A stretch of DNA of 64,000 bases from Pseudolabrys sp. (GTDB lineage: Bacteria; Pseudomonadota; Alphaproteobacteria; Rhizobiales; Xanthobacteraceae): contig DATMEX010000026.1 in NCBI GenBank assembly GCA_035556455.1, positions 3,574 through 67,573 on the forward strand, written 5' to 3'. Of this stretch, positions 6,093 to 60,147 are shown in pieces (the first letter of the stretch is position 1; the number at the start of each line of letters is the position of its first letter). The notes under the pieces are model-generated. The model saw nothing but the letters and a program-made list of their open reading frames with translations. It made no database searches and was not told where the DNA came from. Position numbers and translations under genes: made by a program.

Positions 6093-7045
6093 GCCACGCT
6101 CCCGGTGTGCCGGCTGTTGACCGCGGTCTGGATCGAGTGCGCGCCCATGCGGCCATGCAGTGCGAACAGCAATTCGGTCGGGCCGCGGTCGGTGCGATGC
6201 ACGGTGAAGGTCCAGCCGAACGCCTCTGTCTCGGCGCGCAGCGCGGCGCGATGATTGGCGAGCAGCGCCTGATAATCGTTGCGCCAGGTCTCGGCCCGGC
6301 CGGCGGTGACGCTGCCGAGGCCTTCGGACTCGACGAACTCGACGCGGCCGGAATAGGGGAAAGTCTCTTCCGCCGGATCGCACACCTGCACGACATGCCC
6401 GCGCGCGCCATTGGCGGCGAGCTGGCCGATCATCTTGCGATATTCGGCGATCGGGCTCCACAGGTCGGAGAATATCACGACTTCGGAATAGGGCGCCGGC
6501 GCGAAGTTCGGCGGCAGGCTCGGCCGCTCGGTGGTGTCATGGATGATGCGTTGCGCCATGGTCTCGATGACATTGCGGCTGGCGGTCGGCCGCATCAGCA
6601 GCGGGATGCCGACACGTTCGCCGCCCTGCACCAGCACTTCCGAGAGCGCAAAGGATACGACCAGCGCGCGGTCGAGCTTCGACCACTCGGTCAGATGCGA
6701 CGAGAATTCCATCGACGGCGAGCGGTCGGCCCACATCCAGATCGTATGCGAGGCCTCCCATTCGCGCTCGCGCACATAGAGATGGTCGTCGCGCGCCGAG
6801 CGCCGCCAGTCGATGCGGCTGGCCGGTTCGCCGGACGTGAAGTGCCGATATTGCCAGAAGTTCTCGCCGGTGCCGGCGCGGCGGCGGCCGTGCAGGCCAT
6901 GGATCAGCGTCGCCGCGACCCGCCGCGCCTCGAGGATGAGGCGTGGAATGCGGGCGGCCAGTTTGCTGCTCTTGCCGGCCGCGGCATTGACCGGCGTCGC
7001 GCTGGTTCCTGTAACGGTCGGCTCGGCCAAAACGTTGTCCGCCAT
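6089..7045 (-). CDS. DUF58 domain protein (MoxR partner)
   Basis: Start MADNV at 7045; HGRRRAGTGENFWQYRHF, RIDWRRSAR, VREREWE and DRSPSM motifs. Confidence 0.9.
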   Translation of the reverse strand: MADNVLAEPTVTGTSATPVNAAAGKSSKLAARIPRLILEARRVAATLIHGLHGRRRAGTGENFWQYRHFTSGEPASRIDWRRSARDDHLYVREREWEASHTIWMWADRSPSMEFSSHLTEWSKLDRALVVSFALSEVLVQGGERVGIPLLMRPTASRNVIETMAQRIIHDTTERPSLPPNFAPAPYSEVVIFSDLWSPIAEYRKMIGQLAANGARGHVVQVCDPAEETFPYSGRVEFVESEGLGSVTAGRAETWRNDYQALLANHRAALRAETEAFGWTFTVHRTDRGPTELLFALHGRMGAHSIQTAVNSRHTGSVA

Positions 7046-13355: not shown

Positions 13356-13426
13356 CCGCCGGATAACGTGCATGTGTCTGCTGCGTGAAGCCTGCACCCG
13401 CTATCGTCCCTGAACAGGGGGGATGC

Positions 13427-13921
13427 ATGCGCGGATTCTGGCGAGGTCTTGCGATCTTTCTGCTGGGCGGGGTTGGCGGCGCCGGCTTCGGCGTGGCTTT
13501 AGGCTTCTTTCTATTTCCCTACGTGTTTCCGCCACCCCCGGCGACCGAGCAGATCGCGGAAGCGGACCGCGCCGCGCTCGTTGCCACCGGGACTTTCATC
13601 CACGCCAATCCGTCGGACCCCATCCACTACGGCCAGGGCAAGGTCAGCCTCTATCGCCGCGCCGTGTTCCTCGAGCCGGATTTCGAGGTCGGACCGGGTC
13701 CGGCCTATCACGTCTATCTGGTGCCCAATGCGAACGTGCGCAGCGAGGCGGGCGTCAAGGACACGATGTTCGTCGATCTCGGCCGCCTGCGCGCCTTCAA
13801 GGGCAGCCAGCGCTATTCCATTCCGGACGGCGTCGATTTGTCGAAATATCCGAGCGTCGTCATCTGGTGCGAGCGTTTCGGCGTGCTGATTTCACCGGCC
13901 GATCTTGTCGCCGCCAAATGA
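13427..13921 (+). CDS. DM13 domain protein with N-terminal TM anchor
   Basis: ATGTFIHANPSDPIHYGQGKV, GPGPAYHVYL, VDLGRLRAFKGSQRYSIP, VVIWCERFGV. Confidence 0.85.
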   Translation: MRGFWRGLAIFLLGGVGGAGFGVALGFFLFPYVFPPPPATEQIAEADRAALVATGTFIHANPSDPIHYGQGKVSLYRRAVFLEPDFEVGPGPAYHVYLVPNANVRSEAGVKDTMFVDLGRLRAFKGSQRYSIPDGVDLSKYPSVVIWCERFGVLISPADLVAAK

Positions 13922-21435: not shown

Positions 21436-22626
21436 CTAGCGTGATGTTGATCCACCCGTGCTGTCGTCGAGCGGCGAGCGGTTGGGCAGGAAAGGTTTGT
21501 CGGCGGGCGCCGGTGCCCAGGGGCCTTGCGAGCCCGGAGCCTGCGCCGCATTGCCCGGCTGCGGTTCTGTGCTCCAGGGGCCTTGCGGCGCCTCGCCTTC
21601 GATCTGCCCTTCCTCTTGGGGCGGCGTTTCAAGAGCAATCGGTCCCGGGTCGTGGCCGCCGGCGAATTTCACCAGCGCCTCGACACGTGCATCCACGGAC
21701 GGGTGGGTGGCGAAGATATCGCTGAAACCCTGGCGCGGATTATCGACGCACATTTCCATGACCGACGAATTGGCGCTCGCCAGCTCGCCGCGGTTCTCGA
21801 TCTTGCGCAGCGCCGTGATCATGGCGTCGGGGTTCTTGGTGAGTTCGACGGCGCCGGCATCGGCGAGGTATTCGCGCCGGCGCGACAGCGCGAAGCGGAT
21901 GACGATCGACAACAGCCAGGCGACGACGATGAGGACGAGGGCAATGACGATGGCAATGGCGGCGCCGCCGCCGCCCTTGCGGTCATCGTTGCTGCGCCGC
22001 CCGCCCAGGCCGCCGAAGCGGGCGCCCTGAAAGAACAGCCGGAACACCATCTCACCGAAGAACGAGATGACGCCGGCGATCACCACCGCGATGACCAGCA
22101 TGCGCACGTCGCCGTTACGGATGTGGGTCAGTTCGTGGCCGAGCACGGCTTCCATTTCGGCGTCGTTGAGCGCGCCGATCAGGCCGCGCGTCACGGTGAT
22201 GGAATATTGCTTCTCGTTGAGGCCGGTGGCGAAGGCATTGAGGGCGTCGTCCTCGGCGATGCGCAGGCTCGGCATGGTGATGCCGCGCGAGATGCAGAGG
22301 TTCTCGAGCAGGTTATAGAGCCGCGGCTCTTCGGCGCGGGTGACCTGATGCGCGCCGGTCACGGCGTCGATCATGCGCTGATGGAACTTGTAAGCGATCA
22401 GCACCCACAGAATGGTGCCCACGGTTGCGACCGGTGCGGCGATCCTGAGGTCATGAAGGGCCGCCTGCACCAGATAATCGAGCGGCGCATCGGCCACGCT
22501 CATGGCCTCGGCCAGCAGTGCCCCGGCGAACACCAGCACATAGACCAGAAAGAACAGGCCGATCAGCAGGGCGATCGACCGGCGCCGGTTCGACTGGATG
22601 TGGGTGTAAAGACCGTAGGCGGCCAT
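21436..22626 (-). CDS. htpX: M48 zinc metalloprotease, HtpX-like
   Basis: Start MAAYGLY at 22626; NAFATG, HELTH zinc motif, SRRREYLADAGA, THPS; follows lemA. Confidence 0.9.
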   Translation of the reverse strand: MAAYGLYTHIQSNRRRSIALLIGLFFLVYVLVFAGALLAEAMSVADAPLDYLVQAALHDLRIAAPVATVGTILWVLIAYKFHQRMIDAVTGAHQVTRAEEPRLYNLLENLCISRGITMPSLRIAEDDALNAFATGLNEKQYSITVTRGLIGALNDAEMEAVLGHELTHIRNGDVRMLVIAVVIAGVISFFGEMVFRLFFQGARFGGLGGRRSNDDRKGGGGAAIAIVIALVLIVVAWLLSIVIRFALSRRREYLADAGAVELTKNPDAMITALRKIENRGELASANSSVMEMCVDNPRQGFSDIFATHPSVDARVEALVKFAGGHDPGPIALETPPQEEGQIEGEAPQGPWSTEPQPGNAAQAPGSQGPWAPAPADKPFLPNRSPLDDSTGGSTSR

Positions 22627-22677
22627 GCTGTTTCCACCTGTACGGTGCAGCGCGGGAGGGTGCGCAGCACCTTTCGC

Positions 22678-22755
22678 GTCATGGCCGGGCTTGTCCCGGC
22701 CATCCACGCCTTATGGAAGCAAGACGTGGATGCCCGGCATAAAGCCGGGCATGGC
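22678..22755. repeat. REP-like element, family C (GTCATGGCCGGGCTTGTCCCGGCCATCCACG)
   Basis: GTCATGGCCGGGCTTGTCCCGGCCATCCACG...CGTGGATGCCCGGCATAAAGCCGGGCATGGC; relatives at 36588 and 53617. Confidence 0.88.
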
Positions 22756-22784: not shown

Positions 22785-23348
22785 TCAGAACTTCACGCTC
22801 GGCGCCTGCTCCAGCTGCGGCCTTGCGTCGCCGAGATCGAAGAAGGTGCGCGGGTGGAAGCCGAACATGCCGGCGAACAGCGCCGCGGGGAACTGTTCGA
22901 TGCCGGTGTTGTATTCCTGCACCGCATTGTTGAAGAAGCGCCGCGCCGCGGCCAGCTTGTTCTCGATATCGGCCAGTTCGCTCTGCAGCTGCAGGAAGTT
23001 CGTGTTGGCCTTGAGGTCCGGATAGCTCTCCGCCAGGGCGAAAAGCTGTCGCAGCGCCCCGGTCAGCATGTTCTCGGCGGCCACCTTTTGTTCGACGCCG
23101 GGAGCGGCAATCGCTGCGTTACGGGCCTGCACCACCGCTTCCAGCGTGCCGCGCTCGTGCGCGGCGTAGCCTTTGACGGTCTCGACCAGGTTCGGAATGA
23201 GGTCGTGGCGCTGCTTGAGCTGGACATCGACGTCCGCGAAGGCCTGGTTGGCGCGCTGTCGCATCGCGACCAGGCTGTTGTAGACAGAGATGGCCCAGAG
23301 AACGACGACGACAATGACGCCAAGAATGACCCAGCCGGTGGTGGACAT
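22785..23348 (-). CDS. lemA: LemA family protein
   Basis: Start MSTTGW at 23348; N-terminal TM, VQLKQRHDLIPNLVETVKGYAAHE, ESYPDLKANTNF, RRFFN. Confidence 0.95.
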   Translation of the reverse strand: MSTTGWVILGVIVVVVLWAISVYNSLVAMRQRANQAFADVDVQLKQRHDLIPNLVETVKGYAAHERGTLEAVVQARNAAIAAPGVEQKVAAENMLTGALRQLFALAESYPDLKANTNFLQLQSELADIENKLAAARRFFNNAVQEYNTGIEQFPAALFAGMFGFHPRTFFDLGDARPQLEQAPSVKF

Positions 23349-23436
23349 GGGAAGCGCTCCTGAATGAACCGGGCCACGCGGCGGTTCCGGAAGGTCCGCA
23401 GCGGCCGGAACCATCTCTAAACCTGTCCGATCACAG

Positions 23437-23524
23437 AAAAAAGGCCCCGAACTCGCGTTCGGGGCCTTTTCGCCAGACGGCTATTCGGGGGGTAAGGGGG
23501 GAGCCGCCCGACTTAACAGACGAC
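23437..23524 (-). ncRNA. Candidate small RNA: C-rich-loop hairpin plus intrinsic terminator
   Basis: Minus strand GGCGGCT-CCCCCCTTACCCCCCGAAT-AGCCGTC hairpin, then AAAAGGCCCCGAAC-GCGA-GTTCGGGGCCTTTTTT; no ORF; ECF promoter directly upstream; 5' end estimated. Confidence 0.6.
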
Positions 23525-23529
23525 TGACT

Positions 23530-23554
23530 AACCCCGGCCCCGGCGGATGGTTCC
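23530..23554 (-). promoter_or_regulatory. sigma-EcfG/sigma-T (general stress response)-type promoter
   Basis: GGAAC (23554-23550)-N16-GGTT (23533-23530). Confidence 0.6.
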
Positions 23555-23650
23555 GCGAAGCGAAGCCGTTACGGAAATTTTTTATGTGGCAGACCGCCGC
23601 AGTTCGCTGGGAACTGCATGGCGGCCATGCGGTCACGGGTGGCCAATCGC

Positions 23651-23851
23651 TTAGCGCTGATGGCCGAGCCCGATGTTGAGCTTGAGAGCCTGCTGACGGA
23701 GCGCTCCGGGCGTGCGCTTGAACTCCTTGGCGATCTTGGCAACTGGCGTGCGCGCTTTGGAATGGGCCTTCAGCTTCTTATATTCTTCGTTCGTCCATGG
23801 CCTGCGGCGGATCTTCTTAGCGGCGGCCTTCTTGGAGGACTTTTTAGCCAT
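23651..23851 (-). CDS. Small basic hypothetical protein (66 aa), possible HTH
   Basis: AAGGA SD before ATG at 23851; MAKKSSKKAAAKKIRRRPWTNEEYKKLK...VAKIAKEFKRTPGALRQQA. Confidence 0.75.
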   Translation of the reverse strand: MAKKSSKKAAAKKIRRRPWTNEEYKKLKAHSKARTPVAKIAKEFKRTPGALRQQALKLNIGLGHQR

Positions 23852-24069: not shown

Positions 24070-27000
24070 TCAGCCCGCTTCTCTGAAGCGCACGGCCGCT
24101 TCGAGATCCACCGAGACGAGCTGCGAAACGCCACGCTCCGCCATGGTGACGCCGAACAGCCGGTTCATGCGCGCCATGGTAATCGGATTGTGGGTGATGA
24201 TGACGAAGCGCGTGTCGGTCGACTGCGTCATCTCGTCCAGCATGTCGCAGAACCGCTCCACGTTGTGATCGTCGAGCGGCGCGTCGACTTCGTCCAGCAC
24301 GCAGATCGGCGCCGGGTTGGTCAGGAACACCGCGAAGATCAGCGCCATGGCGGTCAGCGCCTGCTCGCCGCCCGACAGCAGCGACAGGGTCGCCGGCTTC
24401 TTGCCGGGAGGCTTGGCCAGAATTTCGAGGCCGGCCTCGAGGGGATCGTCGCTCTCGATGAGCTGCAGTTCCGCGGTGCCGCCGTTGAACAGCTTGGTGA
24501 AGAGCTGCTGGAAGTGCGTGTTGACCTGCTGGAACGAGGCCATCAGGCGCTCGCGCGCTTCCTTGTTCAGGCTCTGGATGCCGAGGCGCAGCTTCTTGAT
24601 CGCCTCGACGAGGTCGTCGCGCTCGGCGGTCAGCGAATTGTGCTGGGTCTCGACCTCGATCAGCTCTTCCTCGGCGCGCAGGTTGACGGCGCCGAGACGC
24701 TCGCGCTCGCGGCGCAGACGCTCCAGCGTGGCATCCACCTCCATGATATCGGGCAATGGATCGCCTTCGGCGAGCTCGGCGAGGGCCGCCACCGCAGCGG
24801 GCTCGACTTCGAGCATGTCGTGGATTTCGCGGGCGATGTCGGTGAGGCGGCGCTTGGAGGATTCAAAGCGCTCTTCGGCGCGGGCGGCTTCCTCGCGCGC
24901 GCGCGAGGCGGCTTCCAGCGCGGCGCGGGCGTCGCGGTCGGCCGCGGCCAGCGCGTTCTCGGCCTCCTGCAGCTTGTCGGCGCATTCGCGGCGGTCGGCC
25001 TCGGCGAGTTGGACCTCGCTGATCAGGGCCTCGCGCTTCTCGGCGAAAACTTCCGGCGCGTTGGCCAGTTCCTCGCGGTCGCGCCGGGCCTCTTCATAAC
25101 GGAGGGCCAGAGTTTCGGTCTGCGCCGCGGCGCTTTCCTGGCGCGTATACCAACCGGCTTTTTCTTCGCCGACCTGACGCAGACGGCGATCGGCGATTTC
25201 CGCTTCGCGGACGATCGCCTGCTGTTCCGCGCGCACTTCGGCGAGCGCAGCGCGCTTGCCGGTGATGTCGTCGCGCACGCCGTCGAGCTCGGTTTCGATT
25301 TCGGCGGCGGGAGCCAGCGCCGCGAGGCCTTCATCGGCGGCAGCGATGCCGGCGGTGGCTTCCTCATGGCTCGCGGTAAGGCGGCTTAGCGCTTCGCTCA
25401 GGGCCGAGACGCGGGCCGCATTGCGGTTAACTTCGCGCTCGGCGGCTTCGTGGCGGTCACGCGCGGCGTTCAATTCGCGCTGGCGCTCACGCGCAGCGTT
25501 GCGGGATTCCGTTTCGGCGGTGCCGGCGGCCGCGAGCGCAGCCTGCGCGTCTTCGCTCATCTGCTTGGCGGTATCGACTTCGGCCTTGGCGATGACAAGT
25601 TCGGACTCGATCTCGGCGAGACGCGCGCGCTCGGCGAGACGGCGCGCGGCACCGGTCGGCGCGTGCGCGGCGGCGGCAAAGCCGTCCCAGCGCCACAGAT
25701 CGCCCTCGGGCGAGACCAGGCGCTGCCCCGGCTTGAGCTGGCTCACGAGACGCGCGCCTGCTTCCTTGTCGACGACGCCGATCTGATTGAGACGACGGGC
25801 GAGCTCGTCGGGCGCGCGCACATGGGCCGACAGAGGCGTTGCGCCGCTGGGCAGCGACGGATCGGCGCTGTCCACGGTCGAGCCGATCCAGCGCATGGGC
25901 GCCGACGGATCGACCGGGGCATCGAGGTCATCGCCCAGCGCGGCGCCCAAGGCTTTCTCGAAGCCTTTGTCGACCGTGATGTTGTCCATCACCGGCGGCC
26001 ACATGTTCTTGGTCTCGACCGCCAGCACCTTCGACAAGGTCTTGGCTTCGGTTTCGAGACGCTGCACGCGGCGCTCGGCCTCCGTCAGCGGATTGCGCGT
26101 CGCTTCCAGCGCGGCACGCGCAGCCGTATGAGCGGCTTCCGCTTCGATGGCAGCGGTCTCGGCTTCGGCCAGCGCCTGCTGGATGGTTTCGACCTCGGCG
26201 GTCAGCGCGGCGAGATCGGGGCCGCTTTCGGCCTGCAGCGTGTCGAGCTCGCGGGTAATGCCGGCCATTTCGGCTTCGATCTTCCCGGCGCGCTCGCGAT
26301 GCTGACGCACCGCGGCTTCGAGCTGATTGCGCTGCGCCGTAAGATCGGCCAGGCGCGCGGTCAGTTCCGAGAATACCCGCTCGGCGGCGACCAGCGCGCT
26401 GTTGGCTTCGTCGACGCGGGCATCGACGCCCGAGCGGCGGCCGGCGCTTTCGGCGGCCTCGGCCTTGATCATTTCCTCTTCGGCGGCGAGGCGGGCAATG
26501 GCCGCTTCCGCATCCGCGACGAGCTTCTGCTCACGCTCGCTGTCGGCGGCGAACTGAACGAGGCGCTTGTCGAGTTCGCTGATGCGGTCCTTGGCGCGCT
26601 GCTCTTCGCGATCGAGTTCCTGCATCGCGACATTGAGGCGATGCAAAGCCGCGCCGGCGCGGGCTTCGGCTTCGCGCAGCGGCGGCATGCCGGCGGCGAA
26701 TTCGGCCTGACGGGTCGAGGCTTCGGCCTGCGCACCGGTGCGCTCGGCGACTTCGCGCACGCACAGATCCATCGCCGTTTGGGCTTCGACCTGTTCGAAA
26801 TTTGCGGCGGTCCAGCGCAGATGCAGCAGCGTCGCTTCGGTCTTGCGGACCTGCGCCGACACGGTGCGATAGCGGATCGCCTGCTTGGCCTGCTTGCGCA
26901 GGGCTTCCATCTGGCCGGCGAGCTGGCCGATGACATCCTCAAGACGGGTGAGGTTGGTTTCGGCGGCTTTCAGGCGCAGTTCGGCTTCATGCCGGCGGGC

Positions 27001-27522
27001 GTGCAGGCCCGACACGCCGGCGGCTTCTTCCAGAACGCGGCGGCGTTGCTCGGGCTTCGCCTGGATGATTTCGCCGATGCGGCCCTGATGGACGAGGGCC
27101 GGCGAGCGCGCGCCGGTCGAGGCGTCGGCGAACACGATCTGCACGTCGCGGGCGCGGACTTCCTTGCCGTTGATGCGATAATTCGACCCGGACTCGCGCT
27201 CGATGCGGCGGGCGATTTCCAGCGTATCGGTATCGTTGAACTGCGCCGGCGCCGAGCGTTCCTTGTTGTCGATCAGGATCGCGACTTCGGCGTTGTTGCG
27301 GGCCGGGCGGGTGTTGGAGCCGGAGAAGATGACGTCGTCCATCGAGGACGCGCGCATCGACTTGTACGAGTTCTCGCCCATCACCCAGCGCAAGGCTTCG
27401 ACGAGGTTCGACTTGCCGCAACCGTTGGGGCCGACCACGCCGGTCAGACCGGGCTCGATGACGAAATCGGTCGGTTCAACGAAGGATTTGAAACCGAGAA
27501 GACGGAGGCGAGTGAGAATCAT
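24070..27522 (-). CDS. smc: Chromosome segregation protein SMC
   Basis: GFKSF, VVGPNGCGKSN Walker A, coiled coils, hinge ALGAALGDDL, LSGGEQAL signature, LDEVDAPLD; ATG at 27522. Confidence 0.96.
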   Translation of the reverse strand: MILTRLRLLGFKSFVEPTDFVIEPGLTGVVGPNGCGKSNLVEALRWVMGENSYKSMRASSMDDVIFSGSNTRPARNNAEVAILIDNKERSAPAQFNDTDTLEIARRIERESGSNYRINGKEVRARDVQIVFADASTGARSPALVHQGRIGEIIQAKPEQRRRVLEEAAGVSGLHARRHEAELRLKAAETNLTRLEDVIGQLAGQMEALRKQAKQAIRYRTVSAQVRKTEATLLHLRWTAANFEQVEAQTAMDLCVREVAERTGAQAEASTRQAEFAAGMPPLREAEARAGAALHRLNVAMQELDREEQRAKDRISELDKRLVQFAADSEREQKLVADAEAAIARLAAEEEMIKAEAAESAGRRSGVDARVDEANSALVAAERVFSELTARLADLTAQRNQLEAAVRQHRERAGKIEAEMAGITRELDTLQAESGPDLAALTAEVETIQQALAEAETAAIEAEAAHTAARAALEATRNPLTEAERRVQRLETEAKTLSKVLAVETKNMWPPVMDNITVDKGFEKALGAALGDDLDAPVDPSAPMRWIGSTVDSADPSLPSGATPLSAHVRAPDELARRLNQIGVVDKEAGARLVSQLKPGQRLVSPEGDLWRWDGFAAAAHAPTGAARRLAERARLAEIESELVIAKAEVDTAKQMSEDAQAALAAAGTAETESRNAARERQRELNAARDRHEAAEREVNRNAARVSALSEALSRLTASHEEATAGIAAADEGLAALAPAAEIETELDGVRDDITGKRAALAEVRAEQQAIVREAEIADRRLRQVGEEKAGWYTRQESAAAQTETLALRYEEARRDREELANAPEVFAEKREALISEVQLAEADRRECADKLQEAENALAAADRDARAALEAASRAREEAARAEERFESSKRRLTDIAREIHDMLEVEPAAVAALAELAEGDPLPDIMEVDATLERLRRERERLGAVNLRAEEELIEVETQHNSLTAERDDLVEAIKKLRLGIQSLNKEARERLMASFQQVNTHFQQLFTKLFNGGTAELQLIESDDPLEAGLEILAKPPGKKPATLSLLSGGEQALTAMALIFAVFLTNPAPICVLDEVDAPLDDHNVERFCDMLDEMTQSTDTRFVIITHNPITMARMNRLFGVTMAERGVSQLVSVDLEAAVRFREAG

Positions 27523-27783
27523 ACTGAAGAACCTCAACCCGCGGCGGCGCGTGCGCCGCCTTTCGGGATTGTCGATGACTAACGAGAACTGGGTGCCGGG
27601 GCCACCGCCCGGGCGCTATACGTCGTATGCCGCATTCCACGGCACAATGAAATCTCGGGTCGGCGCAAGCAACCGACATGGGCCGCAAAAGCCCGGTTTT
27701 CCAGACTTTTCGGCTGTGGATGGAAATAAAAATACCTTTGTACCGCCGGACTACATATTGGGTCCGGCGGAACTTGGTCCGTC

Positions 27784-59827: not shown

Positions 59828-59914
59828 TCAGCGCGCCGTGCCCGGGCTGCCGGTGACGAGTGCGCCGAAGAACAGCGCCAGAAACACCATCCCGATGACC
59901 TGAAAAGTCAGCAT
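59828..59914 (-). CDS. 28-aa hydrophobic peptide, absent from the ORF track
   Basis: MLTFQVIGMVFLALFFGALVTGSPGTAR*; one TM helix; weak AGGG SD. Confidence 0.5.
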   Translation of the reverse strand: MLTFQVIGMVFLALFFGALVTGSPGTAR

Positions 59915-60147
59915 TGAATATCCCTGCAACCTTTTCTTCAGCCTGTCTCAGTTGTGTCTTTATCGGGCCGGTTTCAAGATAAGCTGAAGGTATAGGTTAC
60001 AACTGTCTCGATCCGGCCTCTTGTGACGGAGGCTTGTCCGGCAGCTTGACCCCAATTGGGGCCGCCGATAGGGTCCCGCCGCGCCGTTACCCTTTGAAAT
60101 CAGTAACAAACGGCCGCCGGAAAACCCCTGACAGGCCCGAACGTTCC

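Follow-up and report, generated by a model that had tools for sequence, protein, structure and literature searches.

Introduction

By its design, the closest studied relative of the RNA described here is GsrN of Caulobacter. GsrN is sigma-T dependent and stabilised by Hfq, and it acts on G-rich mRNA sites, the katG leader among them, through six tandem cytosines in its 5′ loop; processing of the RNA leaves a stable 5′ isoform (Tien et al. 2018, PMC5869019). Its BLAST homologues are confined to the Caulobacteraceae (PMC5869019). Further 'GsrN-like' genes have been predicted near the general stress response (GSR) locus in Rhizobiaceae, Rhodopseudomonas palustris and Bradyrhizobium diazoefficiens, the criteria being a near-consensus EcfG site, proximity to sigT/ecfG-nepR-phyR and intergenic transcription (Tien et al. 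2018, Fig. 9, PMC5869019).

Three features, namely the promoter, the loop and the published target sites, identified the Rfam family RF01529 (CC3552) as GsrN of Caulobacter crescentus (ccna_R0081). The complement of those sites was used to locate the corresponding Caulobacter vibrioides locus (L259), which displays GGAAC-N16-CGTT, is matched by RF01529 at 88 bits and contains ACGCCCCCCGACUUGA. Two C-rich 8-mers of GsrN are CCCCCCGA, within its loop, and CCCCCCUU, within its linker.

Here we analyse an element found on the minus strand of a 64,000-nucleotide stretch of a Pseudolabrys sp. genome (the window), located between smc and lemA. Judged from its sequence, the element is genuinely an sRNA gene, and its conservation is very high; the promoter is of EcfG type and the C-rich loop is bipartite. 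It constitutes a new sequence family of a kind of RNA that is already known and predicted.

Anatomy and fold of the element

The features of the locus are collected in Table 1. A GGAAC box is followed, after a spacer of 16 nt, by GGTT, and about 17 nt of unpaired 5′ sequence separate the latter from stem 1 of the sRNA. Stem 1 is formed by the pairing of GUCGGGCGGCU with AGCCGUCUGGC, three of its pairs being G-U, and a GAAAA spacer separates this stem-loop from the terminator hairpin, GGCCCCGAAC-GCGA-GUUCGGGGCC. When 91 nt were folded, the minimum free energy (MFE) and centroid structures were identical and contained exactly two hairpins, leaving unpaired both C6 runs of the loop, which are also conserved. 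The fold has a predicted energy of -44.3 kcal/mol, with z = -4.9 relative to dinucleotide shuffles, and none of 200 shuffles was as stable. A simple terminator scanner missed the terminator hairpin that is clear in the folds, probably because the A-tract pairs with the U-tail. There is no conserved ORF in the RNA body, and a coding reading was rejected, the sole overlapping ORF beginning upstream of the promoter and not being conserved.

Table 1. Positions of the features discussed in the text, numbered along the window
Feature	Positions	Strand	Remarks
smc	24070..27537	-	Pfam SMC_N, 6e-61; upstream neighbour, same strand
66-aa ORF	23651..23851	-	very basic product (MAKKSSKKAAAKKIRRRPWTNEEYKKLKAH...); between smc and the sRNA; no Pfam match
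ORF overlapping the element	23481..23636		rejected as coding
Whole element	23437..23554	-	promoter to terminator
-35 box GGAAC	23550..23554	-	EcfG-type promoter; invariant in 28/28 genus homologues
-10 box GGTT	23530..23533	-	CGTT in most relatives; GTT invariant
Predicted sRNA transcript	23437..23523	-	~85-87 nt; 5′ end predicted 7-9 nt past the -10 box
Stem-loop 1	23472..23512	-	11-bp stem presenting the loop; arms 23512-23502 and 23482-23472
Loop CCCCCCUUACCCCCCGAAU	23483..23501	-	19 nt, two C6 runs; proposed seed
Rho-independent terminator	23437..23466	-	10-bp GC-rich stem, GCGA loop, U6 tail; hairpin 23466-23443, U6 23442-23437
Terminator-lemA gap	23349..23436	-	88 nt; holds 8-bp inverted repeat GGTTCCGG...CCGGAACC
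lemA	22785..23348	-	Pfam LemA, 4.5e-59; downstream neighbour, same strand
M48 (HtpX-like) peptidase gene	21436..22707	-	Pfam Peptidase_M48, 1.3e-30; after lemA
AGGGGGGA	13416..13423	+	at the ribosome-binding site of the DM13-type gene, 3 nt before ATG
DM13-type gene	13427..13921
EcfG-type box GGAACGTTCGGGCCTGTCAGGGGTT	60123..60147	-
28-aa hydrophobic ORF	59828..59914		product MLTFQVIGMVFLALFFGALVTGSPGTAR

A first-pass annotation, made from the letters of the window, had read on this strand GGAAC-N16-GGTT, a C-rich loop and a terminator ending in U6, and both the sequence reading and the fold bear this out. The stem-loop it had drawn is likewise a genuine hairpin of the fold, the stem being of 11 and not of 7 bp. 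Its view of a stand-alone sRNA gene running from promoter to terminator, in which the promoter is of EcfG type and a C-rich loop is exposed, is supported. The comparison with Rfam that it had suggested was also run, and no family matches: at the gathering cut-off and at E<=10 only terminator-like chance matches were returned.

Conservation and distribution

More than 120 genomes of Pseudolabrys type carry the element, and so do members of at least eight other genera in the GTDB family to which the window genome belongs. One carrier is a cultured strain, Pseudolabrys sp. Root1462 (locus L072). In BLAST searches a 131-nt region was found in 28 of the 37 genus genomes, the window genome included, and no match was obtained in 24 other families of the order. 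The exact loop pattern is present at 119 loci at least in species-representative genomes (GTDB species), and among the matches listed almost all are labelled Pseudolabrys or uncultured Alphaproteobacteria or Rhizobiales. The 19 nt of the loop are nearly invariant across more than 120 genomes. No description of the element was found in the literature searched.

A covariance model built for the element, R1, gives 97 bits on the window sRNA and 80-102 bits in relatives. At E<=1e-5 it matches 42 of 251 genomes of the family, belonging to 18 of its 62 genera, the weakest of these matches being possibly false. The stronger ones, in at least eight other genera, display the GGAAC-N16/17-(C)GTT box, the stem, the C-run loop and the terminator; their loops contain two C-runs (three in one genus), and loops and stems differ in detail, as in CCCCCCUCCCCCCGA or CCCCUCGUCUCCCCAACCCCCC. 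In other families of the order R1 returned terminator-like noise only, with one possible distant relative (family f47). The best match outside the family, of 39.6 bits, is locus L151 of a genome (G277) from another family of the order. A stem bearing the loop UAUUCCCCCCGUCCCCCGGA is present, as is a terminator, the upstream box being only degenerate (GAGAAC-N16-CGTC), and the locus is possibly a distant relative.

Two copies of the sRNA (L040 and L075) are located on different contigs of the MAG MFD02134.bin.1.196, which may reflect a real duplication or a binning artefact. A weak second match of R1 in the window genome (contig C83, 24 bits) corresponds to the terminator of a 3′ UTR and was discarded as a paralogue. 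Another RNA candidate was noticed at G000:C83 ~6250-6420 (minus strand), where a long hairpin with a C-rich apical CCUCAGCCCCCCAGCCCC is followed by a terminator; it reaches -73.8 kcal/mol over 160 nt, and a GGAAC box was not seen upstream of it.

Both helices of the element are under constraint. In an alignment of 42 sequences, 96.8% of the cells of the whole proposed structure are paired and 58 cells carry double changes, compared with 17.9 in shuffles, while pairing falls to 30-48% when the 3′ partners are displaced by one to three columns. Stem 1, paired in 98.5% of the cells across the 42 sequences, varies at seven pairs, one side at a time and via G-U intermediates, for instance from U-G to C-G or U-A; an A on the 3′ side always stands opposite U and never C. 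In the terminator, compensatory double changes affect 8 of 9 pairs across relatives. As read from these alignments, the pattern is that of a structured RNA with a selected promoter and fits neither a coding region nor a hairpin due to chance.

The promoter and the general stress response locus

The promoter boxes are conserved to a degree that their surroundings are not. In an alignment of 28 sequences GGAAC and GTT are invariant, whereas the 16-nt spacer and the flanks vary freely. An exact GGAAC-N16/17-GTT motif, ending 26-31 nt before the first C-run, is present in 116 of 125 unique homologues, and the boxes are retained even in distant genera whose loop and stems differ. Within the window the motif alone is not significant (6 matches versus 2.3 expected), so that the case for a promoter rests on the comparative evidence.

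In the window genome nepR (PF18557) is located on contig C49, with ecfG adjoining and phyR divergent, while the sRNA gene lies on contig C26. The same GGAAC box precedes nepR and phyR, the nepR-ecfG promoter being GGAACCAATTTTCATCCAGCGGGTT and the phyR promoter GGAACTTTTTTGCGGCGCTGACGTT, and the nepR and sRNA promoters have GGAACCA and the GGTT variant in common. This layout of the nepR, ecfG and phyR promoters is the classical autoregulated arrangement. It shows that the box is in use at the GSR core of the window genome; EcfG may read the sRNA promoter too.

Two other boxes of this type were observed. Beside the GSR locus, at G000:C49:47261 (plus strand), the box GGAACCAGCCTGCCGGGCTCGCGTT directly precedes a gene for a small secreted protein (MRKPLTALAAVAIAAAVAAPVGSQAQ...), downstream of phyR and of a histidine kinase gene. 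Within the window, some 220 nt ahead of the 28-aa hydrophobic ORF, there is a second good box of EcfG type (Table 1), and the unit comprising this ORF may belong to the general-stress regulon.

Comparison with GsrN and other sRNAs

RF01529, whose gathering cut-off is 50 bits, had no match at E<=10 in positions 23300-23700. Its best score in the whole genome, 22.6 bits, was obtained on another contig and is below the 50-bit cut-off, and nothing above 23 bits appeared in the window genome together with 20 relatives. The folds also differ: GsrN, of about 106 nt, has a long outer stem that encloses a C-rich stretch and an inner hairpin, and its second C-run is in the linker, whereas the Pseudolabrys sRNA presents both C-runs in the apical loop of a simple hairpin. 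Hence the element stands outside the GsrN family in sequence and in structure. On the other hand, the two RNAs share: (i) the C-rich 8-mers CCCCCCGA and CCCCCCUU, both of them present in the single Pseudolabrys loop; (ii) at the sequence level, a consensus sigma-T/EcfG promoter directly upstream; (iii) in the predicted fold, an exposed loop with six tandem cytosines; and (iv) a gene away from the GSR locus, in C. crescentus as in Pseudolabrys. The failure of RF01529 and the sharing of both 8-mers fit the description of a functional analog, not necessarily a homolog, under which the element had been entered. In its design the Pseudolabrys sRNA would work as GsrN does.

Set beside the GsrN-like sRNAs of Tien et al., the Pseudolabrys sRNA belongs to their class and probably fulfils their role; it resembles them in its near-consensus EcfG site and differs from them in its address, on a contig other than that of nepR (C26 versus C49). 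MmgR/suhB (RF00519) and EcpR1 (RF02500) of Alphaproteobacteria are similarly short, terminator-ended sRNAs with C-rich or anti-Shine-Dalgarno-like loops; however, they have other promoters and other loop sequences, and their models score at chance level (11.9 bits with a cut-off of 41 and 15.2 bits with a cut-off of 60, respectively).

Genera that do not carry the smc-lemA copy have RNAs of like build, with a GGAAC box upstream, at 1-6 kb from nepR. The loop of these sister elements is AUUCCCCCUGCCCCAUU in two Bradyrhizobium-like genomes and UCCUUUCCCCCCUCCCCCCGUGC (pattern ..CCCCCCUCCCCCCG..) in another genus, and both fold into the same two-hairpin shape. They share with the smc-lemA sRNA the EcfG box, the 5′ hairpin, the C-rich loop and the terminator, whereas the stems, the terminator sequence and the address differ, and R1 gives them 15-24 bits only. 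They are probably of the kind drawn by Tien et al. for Bradyrhizobium. The loop UCCUUUCCCCCCUCCCCCCGUGC hardly differs from the CCCCCCUCCCCCCGA loop that some of the smc-lemA copies have, which suggests that the smc-lemA and nepR-linked RNAs descend from a single ancestral RNA whose gene moved, convergence being the alternative.

Search for targets

G6 tracts are scarce in the window genome, with 420 occurrences compared with about 10,400 expected from base composition. About 64% of them are outside genes, as crudely called, and roughly two dozen are placed just before start codons. Since the tracts are rare and mostly outside genes, the candidate target set is small. A share of the rare G6/C6 tracts is accounted for by a repeated intergenic palindromic element, of pattern …AACCGGGGTGGGGGG…CCCCCCACCCCCGACCCCTCCCCACCAC…GCGGGGGGAGGGGA…, that occurs in at least six copies on contigs C5, C11, C44, C47, C81 and C83, outside the window; transcripts of it, should there be any, could pair with the loop of the sRNA.

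The leader of the DM13-type gene had been put forward in the first-pass annotation as a possible target. The G6 of that site does form part of a real Shine-Dalgarno region. However, the gene is accessory, just 7 of the 41 genomes of the genus having it, and the 8-mer occurs in the window genome only, so this leader was dismissed as a core target. A livH-like permease was rejected too: its ribosome-binding site holds the 12-mer GGGUAAGGGGGG, the genome's best perfect complement, yet 40 other genomes of the genus lack this gene junction. When every 5′ region was ranked with RNAduplex, the results were noisy and long interrupted duplexes prevailed.

Ten candidate leaders were then compared in eight other species, where those of rpsH, ctaE, gatB, lysR, coxS, tadE, alaS and flgF have no conserved complement and only those of fliJ and murA keep one. 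The conserved UUCGGGGG of the fliJ leader is equally present in genera without the sRNA, and it thus gives no specific support to fliJ as a target. At the murA ribosome-binding site, a G-run of at least four is found in 20 of 22 sRNA-bearing genomes (9/9 from Pseudolabrys and 11/13 others) versus 3 of 13 sRNA-less ones (Fisher p = 8e-5), the sRNA-less genomes having mostly a plain GGAG. The sRNA-bearing genera may form one clade, and shared ancestry could produce the same pattern; the co-occurrence of the murA G-run with the sRNA is for this reason a weak lead. No target, among DM13, livH, fliJ and murA, cleanly passed the conservation test.

Proposed mode of action

We propose, with a probability of about 0.7, that the element encodes an independent, EcfG-dependent, base-pairing sRNA of about 85 nt, whose C-runs would pair with G-rich mRNA sites in the manner of GsrN. 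Under general stress the PhyR-NepR-EcfG switch would free sigma-EcfG, which would read GGAAC-N16-GGTT, and transcription would stop at the strong intrinsic terminator. The predicted RNA would consist of an unpaired 5′ tail, the 11-bp stem with its 19-nt loop, the A-rich spacer and the terminator hairpin with its U-tail. A-rich spacers and U-tails are typical contact points of Hfq; hfq is encoded in the window genome, and the presence of both parts indicates that the sRNA is probably Hfq-assisted. The C-runs would most likely act as seeds on the rare G-rich stretches at or near the ribosome-binding sites of mRNAs, and the pairing would alter the translation or the stability of the target mRNAs. 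The general stress response would in this way gain a post-transcriptional arm, comparable to the one that GsrN provides in Caulobacter. The location away from the GSR locus, unlike that of most predicted GsrN-like genes, counts against this proposal.

The fixed position ahead of lemA leaves room for a role in cis, in which the element, with EcfG initiating transcription at its promoter, would be a leader of the lemA-M48 peptidase operon, the terminator a conditional attenuator and the short RNA a by-product. Indeed, among 116 loci with room for it, 115 have lemA downstream of the element, on its strand and no more than 600 nt away, and the order smc-sRNA-lemA-M48 peptidase holds in other genera too. 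Furthermore, in the window genome the gap to lemA is of only 88 nt and holds no recognisable promoter, the right arm of its inverted repeat forming a mis-spaced GGAAC-N14-GTT. However, most relatives have a conserved promoter-like element, TTGCCG-N17-ATCTAG, between the terminator and lemA, which is missing from the window genome and its closest relative; a contribution in cis to lemA is accordingly conceivable in the window genome. The very stable terminator has no competing, antiterminator-like pairing in the MFE and centroid structures, the two structures considered in this attenuator test, and in the Bradyrhizobium-like and several other genera of the family that lack the RNA, lemA is retained but preceded by a different sequence. 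The like-built RNAs of sister genera lie near the GSR locus and not near lemA, and the invariant 19-nt loop is better explained by pairing in trans. Its terminator being strong, no alternative fold having appeared and the sister elements lying elsewhere, the RNA is taken to be primarily stand-alone, and we consider the leader explanation unlikely. It is still less probable that the region is the mere 3′ end and terminator of the smc transcript, with boxes that are coincidental or non-functional, and we give this very little weight. The gene smc is upstream of the sRNA in 108 of 115 loci and in most relatives stops about 120 nt before the loop, from which it follows that smc transcripts probably end at the sRNA terminator. 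Yet a plain terminator region would not need the constraint seen on stem-loop 1, and neither GGAAC nor GTT changes, their distance being fixed, in more than 100 species and several genera, amid bases that vary. In the window genome, moreover, a separate small ORF stands between smc and the element. Of 122 related loci only about 10 have this ORF there, and it is thus a lineage-specific insertion.

An RNA that binds a protein through its C-rich loop, as a decoy or scaffold and with no mRNA pairing, would account for a near-invariance of 19 nt, far more than one short seed needs, and for the conserved mRNA target that was not found. The target search was shallow, however, and no candidate partner binding C-rich RNA is linked to the locus; GsrN, in addition, base-pairs through its C-rich loop (PMC5869019). 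We regard this alternative as quite improbable. The base-pairing, EcfG-dependent sRNA is the reading we retain. A bolder version of it, in which C6-UUA-C6 would be a two-seed clamp that throttles envelope synthesis via the murA G-run, with avoidance of G6 in the genome and with lemA-M48 as an envelope-stress module possibly under regulated read-through, is speculative and unlikely to hold as a whole. If it did, the murA G-run would replace the normal GGAG Shine-Dalgarno sequence in exactly the lineages carrying the RNA, and the scarcity of G6 would in part be avoidance of off-target pairing.

Concluding remarks

Pseudolabrys and its uncultured relatives abound in soil, and we know of essentially no experimental genetics for these bacteria. 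The sRNA is among the most conserved non-coding features of this group and would merit an Rfam family. It leaves unchanged the accepted view of how such RNAs work, adds evidence that EcfG-driven RNAs with C-rich loops are general in Alphaproteobacteria and suggests that the location of the gene can move while the design stays constant. For the Pseudolabrys group, it would provide an entry point to the post-transcriptional arm of the general stress response.
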